Shown here: one piece after another, positions 27,028-27,305 of the stretch
Numbering within the stretch: the stretch's first letter is position 1
How the letters are laid out: the number at the start of each line of letters is the position of its first letter
Notes under the pieces: model-generated
Seen by the model: the letters and a program-made list of their open reading frames with translations, nothing else
Databases searched by the model: none
Told to the model about the DNA's origin: nothing
Program-made: the position numbers and the translations under genes
NCBI GenBank assembly: GCA_045602025.1
Contig: JAZSAT010000004.1
Coordinates: forward strand, 7,464 to 71,463
DNA from: Eubacteriales bacterium
GTDB taxonomy: Bacteria; Bacillota; Clostridia; Oscillospirales; SIG627
Reading direction: 5' to 3'
Length of the DNA stretch: 64,000 nucleotides

Positions 27028-27055
27028 TTGCAACATAATTGACATTATGTTGCAA
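27028..27055. repeat. IR-L: perfect 12-4-12 dyad TTGCAACATAAT-TGAC-ATTATGTTGCAA
   Basis: 27030-27051 is the reverse complement of 27261-27282 (21 of 22 positions). Confidence 0.9.
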
Positions 27056-27184
27056 TTTCTTCTTTCGATCGCAGAAAGAGGAAAGAAAACAATAAAAAAA
27101 GAGCATAACAACAAAAGCTTTTTGACTCGAAAAATCAAAAGGCTTTATCGTTATGTCTATATTTTTGTTTTTTTATCGGAAGTA

Positions 27185-27213
27185 TTGATTTTTTTAAATA
27201 TTTGTGATATGAT
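27185..27213 (+). promoter_or_regulatory. extended -10 promoter inside the invertible segment (OFF orientation relative to the operon)
   Basis: TTGATT, 17-nt spacer, TGaTATGAT. Confidence 0.55.
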
Positions 27214-27260
27214 GGCGATGTATTGTCACAGGTGTTTTTCTTTTTGTGTCAATATGTAGA

Positions 27261-27282
27261 AACATAATGTCAATTATGTCGC
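27261..27282. repeat. IR-R: AACATAATGTCAATTATGTCGC
   Basis: Reverse complement of IR-L with one mismatch. Central core GTCA versus TGAC in IR-L. Confidence 0.9.
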
Positions 27283-27305
27283 ATCCGCAAGGGTGCTTTT
27301 TTTTA
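27281..27305 (+). terminator. plus-strand rho-independent terminator immediately outside IR-R
   Basis: gcatcc-gcaa-gggtgc hairpin followed by T8. It would stop transcripts from the OFF-oriented promoter before they run antisense into the recombinase gene. Confidence 0.65.

Follow-up and report, generated by a model that had tools for sequence, protein, structure and literature searches.

The window, by which we mean the whole 64-kb stretch of DNA that was analysed, carries, with a probability that we put at about 0.85, an invertible-promoter phase-variation switch that is driven by the adjacent recombinase and controls a cohesin/dockerin operon (Table 1). This switch very probably turns the three-gene operon on and off. 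In the mechanism that we propose, the 280-aa recombinase would bind both lox/dif-like sites and invert the segment of about 210 bp that they enclose. As assembled, the predicted promoter faces the recombinase gene and meets a terminator, so that the operon would be OFF; after a flip, the promoter would drive the 54-aa ORF and the genes for the 572-aa cohesin protein and the 1650-aa protein with cohesin and dockerin (ON). We infer that the window copy itself flips and that the predicted promoter is the operon promoter, and the labels ON and OFF are assigned to the window from a consensus promoter prediction. The original prediction, which had proposed a recombinase-driven invertible promoter facing away from the operon, is backed by a conserved module, reverse-complementary cores, mixed promoter orientations, inversions among homologs and published reads.

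Table 1. Positions of the features of the predicted switch and of the neighboring genes in the window.
Feature	Position	Strand	Basis or detail
1650-aa surface protein gene, last in operon	20135..25087	-	Pfam domains
572-aa surface protein gene	25106..26824	-	Pfam domains
First ORF after switch, 54 aa	26840..27004	-	Shine-Dalgarno GAAGGAGAA, 7 nt, ATG
Distal site IR-L, ACATAAT TGAC ATTATGT	27033..27050	.	Core reverse-complementary to that of IR-R
Candidate invertible segment, about 210 nt, 28% G+C	27051..27261	.	Flanked by both sites
Strong internal hairpin, then U-rich UUUUGUUGUU	27104..27155	-	Fold
Predicted promoter TTGATT-17 nt-TATGAT, TG-extended -10	27185..27213	+	Consensus scan
Proximal site IR-R, ACATAAT GTCA ATTATGT	27262..27279	.	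Extended repeat 27261-27283
Predicted intrinsic terminator GCATCC-GCAA-GGGTGC + T8	27281..27305	+	Hairpin 27281-27296, fold
Xer-like tyrosine recombinase gene, 280 aa, presumed invertase	27321..28163	-	Pfam, structure alignment

The two sites, which lie between the 280-aa tyrosine recombinase gene and the cohesin/dockerin operon, belong to a 23-nt inverted repeat with one mismatch (27029-27051 and 27261-27283), with 209 nt between the arms. In both, the palindromic 7-nt arms ACATAAT and ATTATGT enclose a core of 4 nt, TGAC in the left site and GTCA in the right one, and because these centres are reverse-complementary, recombination between the sites would invert the segment without deleting it. 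IR-L sits within a perfect palindrome with 12-nt arms (27028-27055; TTGCAACATAAT-TGAC-ATTATGTTGCAA), about 10 nt upstream of the operon's Shine-Dalgarno sequence, and the end of the proximal site is 37–41 nt from the recombinase stop codon. When the arms-only pattern ACATAATNNNNATTATGT was searched with up to two mismatches, two matches were found in the 64-kb window compared with 0.13 expected, and none of 100 shuffles contained two or more. A 20-mer that includes the core, searched with up to three mismatches, matched exactly twice in the window (0.00 expected), and no third site was found by the arms-only search of the 64 kb.

In the assembled orientation, the predicted promoter points toward the 3' end of the recombinase gene, and its -10 element ends 48 nt from the site that it faces. 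It scores 11.5, a value that about 5% of shuffled segments also attain. A simple scan of positions 26700-28400 found no leftward sigma-70-like site. The ON state was modelled by reverse-complementing 27042-27270 of the window, which gives the flipped-orientation junction sequence ...ACATAATTGACATTATGTTTCTACATATTGACAC...; in this model the promoter moves to 27127-27099 on the minus strand, upstream of the 54-aa ORF, and the 88-nt leader between it and the ATG holds a 12-bp site hairpin right before the Shine-Dalgarno sequence. The predicted terminator, a hairpin followed by T8 on the plus strand (-9.8 kcal/mol, z -2.9), has the proximal site on one side and the recombinase stop codon on the other. 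From this placement we infer that it would keep transcripts of the OFF state from entering the recombinase gene in antisense. Read on the minus strand, the same hairpin is without a T tail. A similar layout, with an A-run on the recombinase strand followed by a GC-rich hairpin, is found in four homologous loci (L001, L007, L043, and L053).

These analyses recovered the anatomy that had been predicted: an inverted repeat flanking a 209-bp AT-rich segment, symmetric arms with the asymmetric cores TGAC and GTCA, an extended -10 promoter on the plus strand for which the scan finds a promoter-like site at the same place, a hairpin-T8 terminator before the 3' end of the recombinase gene, and the lack of a good leftward promoter in the current orientation. 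The promoter had been expected at about 27099-27127 on the minus strand after a flip, roughly 90 nt upstream of the operon, close to what the model gives. Likewise, the 280-aa recombinase near IR-R had been described with an intact R/HxxR/H/Y set, and these residues align with those of XerA, about 40 nt separating gene and site; and the operon had been described as one of cohesin/dockerin surface proteins, for which Pfam finds cohesin, dockerin, LRR_5 and Flg_new domains.

The segment also contains the strong internal hairpin listed in Table 1 (-20.0 kcal/mol, z -5.5), and none of 200 shuffles folds as well. In the present orientation, this hairpin could block read-through from the recombinase gene into the operon, a role that is tentative because the polarity of the hairpin relative to the promoter varies across loci. 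A comparable hairpin is contained in the segment of L043, but there it is oriented differently with respect to the promoter than in the window, and a fixed insulating role was therefore downgraded. No Rfam match above threshold was found for 26700-28400, and the weak matches near 28160-28360 are all driven by a terminator hairpin. At 28257-28292, a perfect hairpin of 16 bp with A and T runs on its flanks, which looks like a bidirectional terminator, parts the recombinase gene from an upstream gene pair of rubredoxin and flavodiiron type, and draws many sub-threshold Rfam matches to leaders and sRNAs. Further upstream, the spacer in the 28400-28600 region has two copies of a AACTTTGTAAAA-type motif.

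The recombinase gene starts with TTG, preceded by AAAGGAGGG, and reads toward the switch and the operon. Its product matches Phage_integrase (5.9e-23) and Phage_int_SAM_1, the N-terminal SAM-like domain (6e-09), in Pfam, and among solved structures it is best matched by XerA (4a8e, 2.7e-21), with full-length alignments to the structures of XerA and XerD. The catalytic set is intact when aligned with XerA: R139, K161/K163, H226 and R229 (H226-x-x-R229), H252, and Y261. The protein scores under the curated NCBIfam cut-offs for XerA (139.3 bits, cut-off 220), XerD (114.9, cut-off 329.6), XerC (108.7, cut-off 335) and also XerS, as well as under those of the FimB/FimE-type models NF007371 (35.3, cut-off 222) and NF007370 (32.9, cut-off 221), and is therefore Xer-like and outside those named families. 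The PGAP models for "tyrosine-type DNA invertase" gave no significant score. The window holds one copy of this recombinase, which forms a single-member cluster among about 15 billion proteins. Exact-protein look-ups with the recombinase and the 54-aa ORF returned no other contig, and scans of genome and metagenome contigs found none of the same species, only homologs of at most 58% identity. The species has been sampled once, and the window copy could be locked. Homologs of the recombinase with 44–62% identity are very numerous.

Downstream of the switch, the 54-aa ORF has a good Shine-Dalgarno sequence but no homolog other than itself among 5.8 billion clustered proteins and no match in Pfam or NCBIfam, and its coding status is therefore uncertain; it may encode a peptide specific to the lineage, serve as a leader ORF or not be a gene at all. 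The two large genes encode surface proteins. The 572-aa protein has an N-terminal signal/anchor, Flg_new_2, LRR_5 and Flg_new domains, and a C-terminal cohesin. The 1650-aa protein has a signal peptide, a cohesin-like region (aa 40-170), a dockerin (aa 175-236), Cys-rich repeats, LRR_5, and Flg_new repeats, and the cohesin-like region is 64% identical to the cohesin of the 572-aa protein. Since the 1650-aa protein carries both a cohesin-like region and a dockerin, mutual or chain assembly with the 572-aa protein is possible, and judging from these domains the operon proteins could assemble together or into chains. Downstream of the 1650-aa gene, a threonine synthase gene converges on the operon.

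The arrangement of the window recurs at other loci that encode related recombinases. We fetched 42 homologous loci, and 31 of them had enough sequence to enter the site analysis, in which only the arms were constrained and the core was left free in a search downstream of the recombinase gene. Two sites follow the recombinase stop codon in all 31, with recombinases 44–62% identical to that of the window. The proximal site starts 3–64 nt past the stop codon apart from two outliers, and in L032 and L039 it directly adjoins that codon; from the proximal to the distal site the distance is mostly 200–330 nt, and the segments measure 117–493 nt, mostly 190–300 nt. The arms are altered where the recombinases are divergent (ACGGAAT/ATTCCGT, ACATTAT/ATAATGT). 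The sites of the window agree fully with the consensus of the family, both in the arms and in the core.

The core itself is variable, with 24 versions across the loci, and nevertheless, in 31 of 31 loci, the distal core reads as the reverse complement of the proximal one. Within a locus, core positions agree 100% in the inverted sense versus 12% in the direct sense. Cores that vary and are always inverted-complementary fit the crossover sites of a tyrosine recombinase in inverted arrangement, and not repressor operators. L007 (sites at +44 and +337) has the palindromic core CATG in both sites; here the asymmetry is found at the innermost arm position (ACATAAA...ATTATGT vs ACATAAT...TTTATGT). 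Such a shift of the asymmetry into the arm suggests, from the sequences of the sites, a functional central or overlap region of about 6 nt that must remain asymmetric. The idea that a "private" core insulates each cassette was not adopted, because L020 and L028 from the same MAG share ATTT/AAAT, and it is also contradicted by several Faecalimonas and Tyzzerella loci that share TCTT/AAGA. Three sites were seen in L010 (+17, +267, +297), L020 (+20, +70, +355) and L072-L078 (+75, +336, +399).

For a census of promoters, each of the 31 segments was represented by its best-scoring sigma-70-type match, whichever strand this was on. A score of at least 11.5 was obtained for 23 of the 31 compared with 5% of shuffles, and the predicted promoter is TG-extended in 25 of the 31, with a spacer that is nearly always 17 nt; the median distance in the family from the end of the -10 element to the site faced is 45 nt. 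The predicted promoter is directed at the cargo in 10 loci and at the recombinase in the other 21, among them the window. Among genome loci, 8 of 28 have a contig that ends less than 450 nt downstream of the recombinase gene (loci with short downstream sequence are L004, L015, L017, L018, L019, L024, L025, and L027, and also L049-L052), and early contig ends of this kind would be the pattern expected from assembly breaks at a segment of mixed orientation.

Inversions could be observed directly among homologous contigs. The P0099 recombinase, 59% identical to that of the window, is itself identical across contigs of different samples, and the segment of L043, L045, and L048 is present as the exact reverse complement in L046 and others; the flipped segments are 100% identical and the flanks 99–100%. 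Contigs of P0043 are split four versus four between exactly opposite orientations, the equivalent segment is exactly inverted between L063 and L064, and the related pairs L010/L021 and L034/L035 have opposite orientations. The P0113 loci, which have three sites, are in one orientation in six of seven contigs, and the contig L078 is inverted between the outer pair, so that switches with three sites may have more than two states. All ten contigs of P0004 are in a single orientation and are uninformative for inversion. Two of the P0099 contigs are disrupted. L044 has acquired an IS element with an rve transposase (3480-4530), which breaks the segment after about 150–200 nt, and in L047 the segment is broken about 150–200 nt in and followed from about 3160 by unrelated DNA, either by rearrangement or by chimeric assembly. 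Upstream in L043-L050 (locus positions 1-2030), the P0099 cassette adjoins a relaxase gene and a NikA-like gene. These neighbors place the P0099 cassette on a mobilisable element, which fits horizontal spread of the cassette.

Read-level evidence comes from a published survey. PhaseFinder analysis of a defined human gut community (hCom2) yielded inverton group 139, comprising 33 invertons, 32 of them in Clostridia, from 17 strains, and no other group was linked as significantly to an adjacent group of tyrosine recombinases, here "invertase group 35," the members of which are tyrosine-type recombinases within 5 kb (PMC11892184). According to Table S5, the sites of group 139 are ACATAAT-N4-ATTATGT with reverse-complementary cores (bioRxiv 10.1101/2024.06.01.596983). 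We checked Coprococcus comes ATCC 27758, Hungatella hathewayi DSM 13479, Clostridium sp. ATCC 29733, VE202-27, and Clostridium sp. D5, and the cores include GTTA/TAAC in C. comes, CGAT/ATCG in H. hathewayi, and CTGC/GCAG in Clostridium sp. ATCC 29733 (Table S5). The switch of Clostridium sp. D5 has thousands of reads per orientation, and one example from group 139 is supported by 4610 forward and 6652 reverse reads (Table S5). Group 139 and the window have in common the site motif and a similar spacing (about 170–230 nt, and about 170–260 nt as the range used for repeat homology), and the internal promoter of group 139, near one end of the segment, has a predicted counterpart in the window; by repeat homology, compared with the entries of the five strains in Table S5, the sites of the window belong with this group. 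Since group 139 shares the site motif and has reads for both orientations, the switch family is already catalogued, with read-level support for flipping. However, that study includes neither the species of the window nor its cohesin/dockerin cargo, and it groups invertons by repeat homology; the anatomy of arms and core, the complementarity of the cores and the abutment of site and stop codon are not described there.

Three other explanations of the window have to be weighed against an active switch. The locus might be a fossil, a copy without meaningful flipping, in which case the operon would be silent for good or under another promoter. We consider this unlikely. A single orientation is available for the species, and some homologs are found in one orientation in all or most of their contigs (10 of 10 for P0004 and 6 of 7 for P0113), as a fossil would have it. 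Against it, neither site deviates from the family consensus in arms or core, the recombinase is of full length and retains its whole catalytic set, and the predicted promoter and its spacing are typical of the family.

It would also be conceivable that the DNA is not rearranged by way of these sequences, or is rearranged differently. If the palindromes were operators for a dimeric transcription factor, maybe a recombinase-like repressor, one could understand why each site is a near-perfect palindrome of operator size and why the pair brackets the predicted promoter; but operators do not predict reverse-complement cores in 31 of 31 loci, or precisely inverted segments between samples, or published reads for both orientations, and this explanation is extremely improbable. 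Only slightly less so is the possibility that the repeats delimit a small non-autonomous mobile element, or serve as att/dif sites for integration, excision or dimer resolution. The recombinase is indeed closest to Xer proteins, one homolog is found beside a relaxase on a mobilisable element, and the genomic contexts of homologs are mutually unrelated. Against this, the sites are always inverted and always directly 3' of the recombinase gene, there is no third site in the window, contigs differ by inversion and not by presence or absence of the segment, and dif is expected singly per chromosome, not paired. An invertible promoter flipped by the adjacent recombinase is the reading that we prefer.

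As such, the switch can be compared with known systems. It resembles fimS of E. coli, which is acted on by FimB/FimE, in the placement of its predicted promoter within a short invertible element, in the adjacent tyrosine recombinase gene and in the surface adhesin operon. FimB and FimE are two recombinases of about 200 aa without the N-terminal SAM-like domain, and fimS has 9-bp repeats and requires IHF and Lrp. By contrast, the window has lox/dif-like sites with arms of 7–12 nt and a single recombinase. Because the transcript of the recombinase runs into the switch, control of the recombinase that depends on orientation is conceivable, as in fim.

The geometry of the sites is that of Xer/dif, Cre/lox, and Flp/FRT, with inverted recombinase-binding arms around a short asymmetric centre that sets polarity; in these systems, recombination needs identical central regions. 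The recombinase is closest to XerA, XerD, and XerC; the window differs from Xer/dif in that a close, inverted pair of sites lies beside the gene and that the outcome would be inversion, not dimer resolution. The invertible promoters of Bacteroides (Mpi, Tsr) are similar in that they control surface structures in gut commensals at many loci per clade, whereas their repeat motifs and promoter consensus differ from those of the window. Mpi is a serine recombinase and acts globally.

The RecV switches of C. difficile (cwpV, flgB) likewise are ON/OFF phase variation by a tyrosine recombinase in Clostridia, and recV serves several switches. In cwpV, about 150–200 bp between imperfect 21-bp repeats lie upstream of a surface-protein gene (PMC2784873). 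The original prediction had likened the window to cwpV/RecV, and this likeness holds for the Clostridia and for the predicted ON/OFF control of a surface protein, but not for the architecture, as the cwpV promoter is outside the switch, its transcript is cut short in the OFF state by an intrinsic terminator, and recV is encoded elsewhere (PMC2784873). With a predicted promoter within the segment and its own recombinase adjoining, the switch of the window does not fall into the cwpV/RecV type, and fimS and the group 139 invertons of Clostridia are better analogues. Literature searches for dockerin together with DNA inversion, or for the site sequence, found nothing relevant.

The cargo of the homologous loci is varied and consists mostly of surface or secreted machinery, as would be expected for phase variation. 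In L003, an ORF of about 100 aa is accompanied by AgrB, a LytTR response regulator and a GHKL kinase (Pfam), and agr-like operons are also indicated by gene sizes in L006, L030, L031, L034, and L035. Signal peptidase with camelysin/TasA-like proteins is found in L002 and L010 and, by eye, in L011 and L014; SPFH and zinc-ribbon proteins in L007 and, by eye, in L022; Wzz in L013; a PglD-like acetyltransferase in L023; a SHIRT-domain protein in L026; a cohesin protein in L032; and very large predicted surface proteins, again by eye, in L009 and L028. Among the homologous loci examined, we found no orthologs of the cargo of the window, and no synteny of its flanking genes with any of these loci.

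Taken together, the cassette behaves as a portable module across these sequence contexts. We tentatively extend this to a broader proposal, which we hold at somewhat less than even odds: a self-contained "plug-in" cassette of about 1.2 kb, made up of the recombinase, the two sites and the promoter segment, may have been put before unrelated operons by gut and rumen Clostridia (agr quorum sensing, TasA/camelysin-like fibres with signal peptidase, capsule, SPFH, and giant adhesins), in which case the window would represent the first inversion-controlled cohesin/dockerin system, and the cassette might bias its own flipping by orientation, like fimE.

These findings leave the current understanding of phase variation unchanged, and they place agr quorum-sensing operons and fibre operons among the targets of invertons. 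As agr-like operons are found behind the same type of switch, quorum sensing may be phase-variable in some Clostridia. They also provide a rule by which such switches may be found, namely, a gene for an Xer-like recombinase of 280 aa, its stop codon, ACATAAT-N4-ATTATGT, and a second site with the reverse-complement core about 200–330 nt further on, and this rule would permit read-free annotation of one abundant inverton family of Clostridia. For the organism itself, an uncultured gut or rumen Clostridium, the switch suggests that a cohesin/dockerin adhesin complex is expressed in part of the population, and such partial expression bears on the surface variation and attachment of these bacteria.
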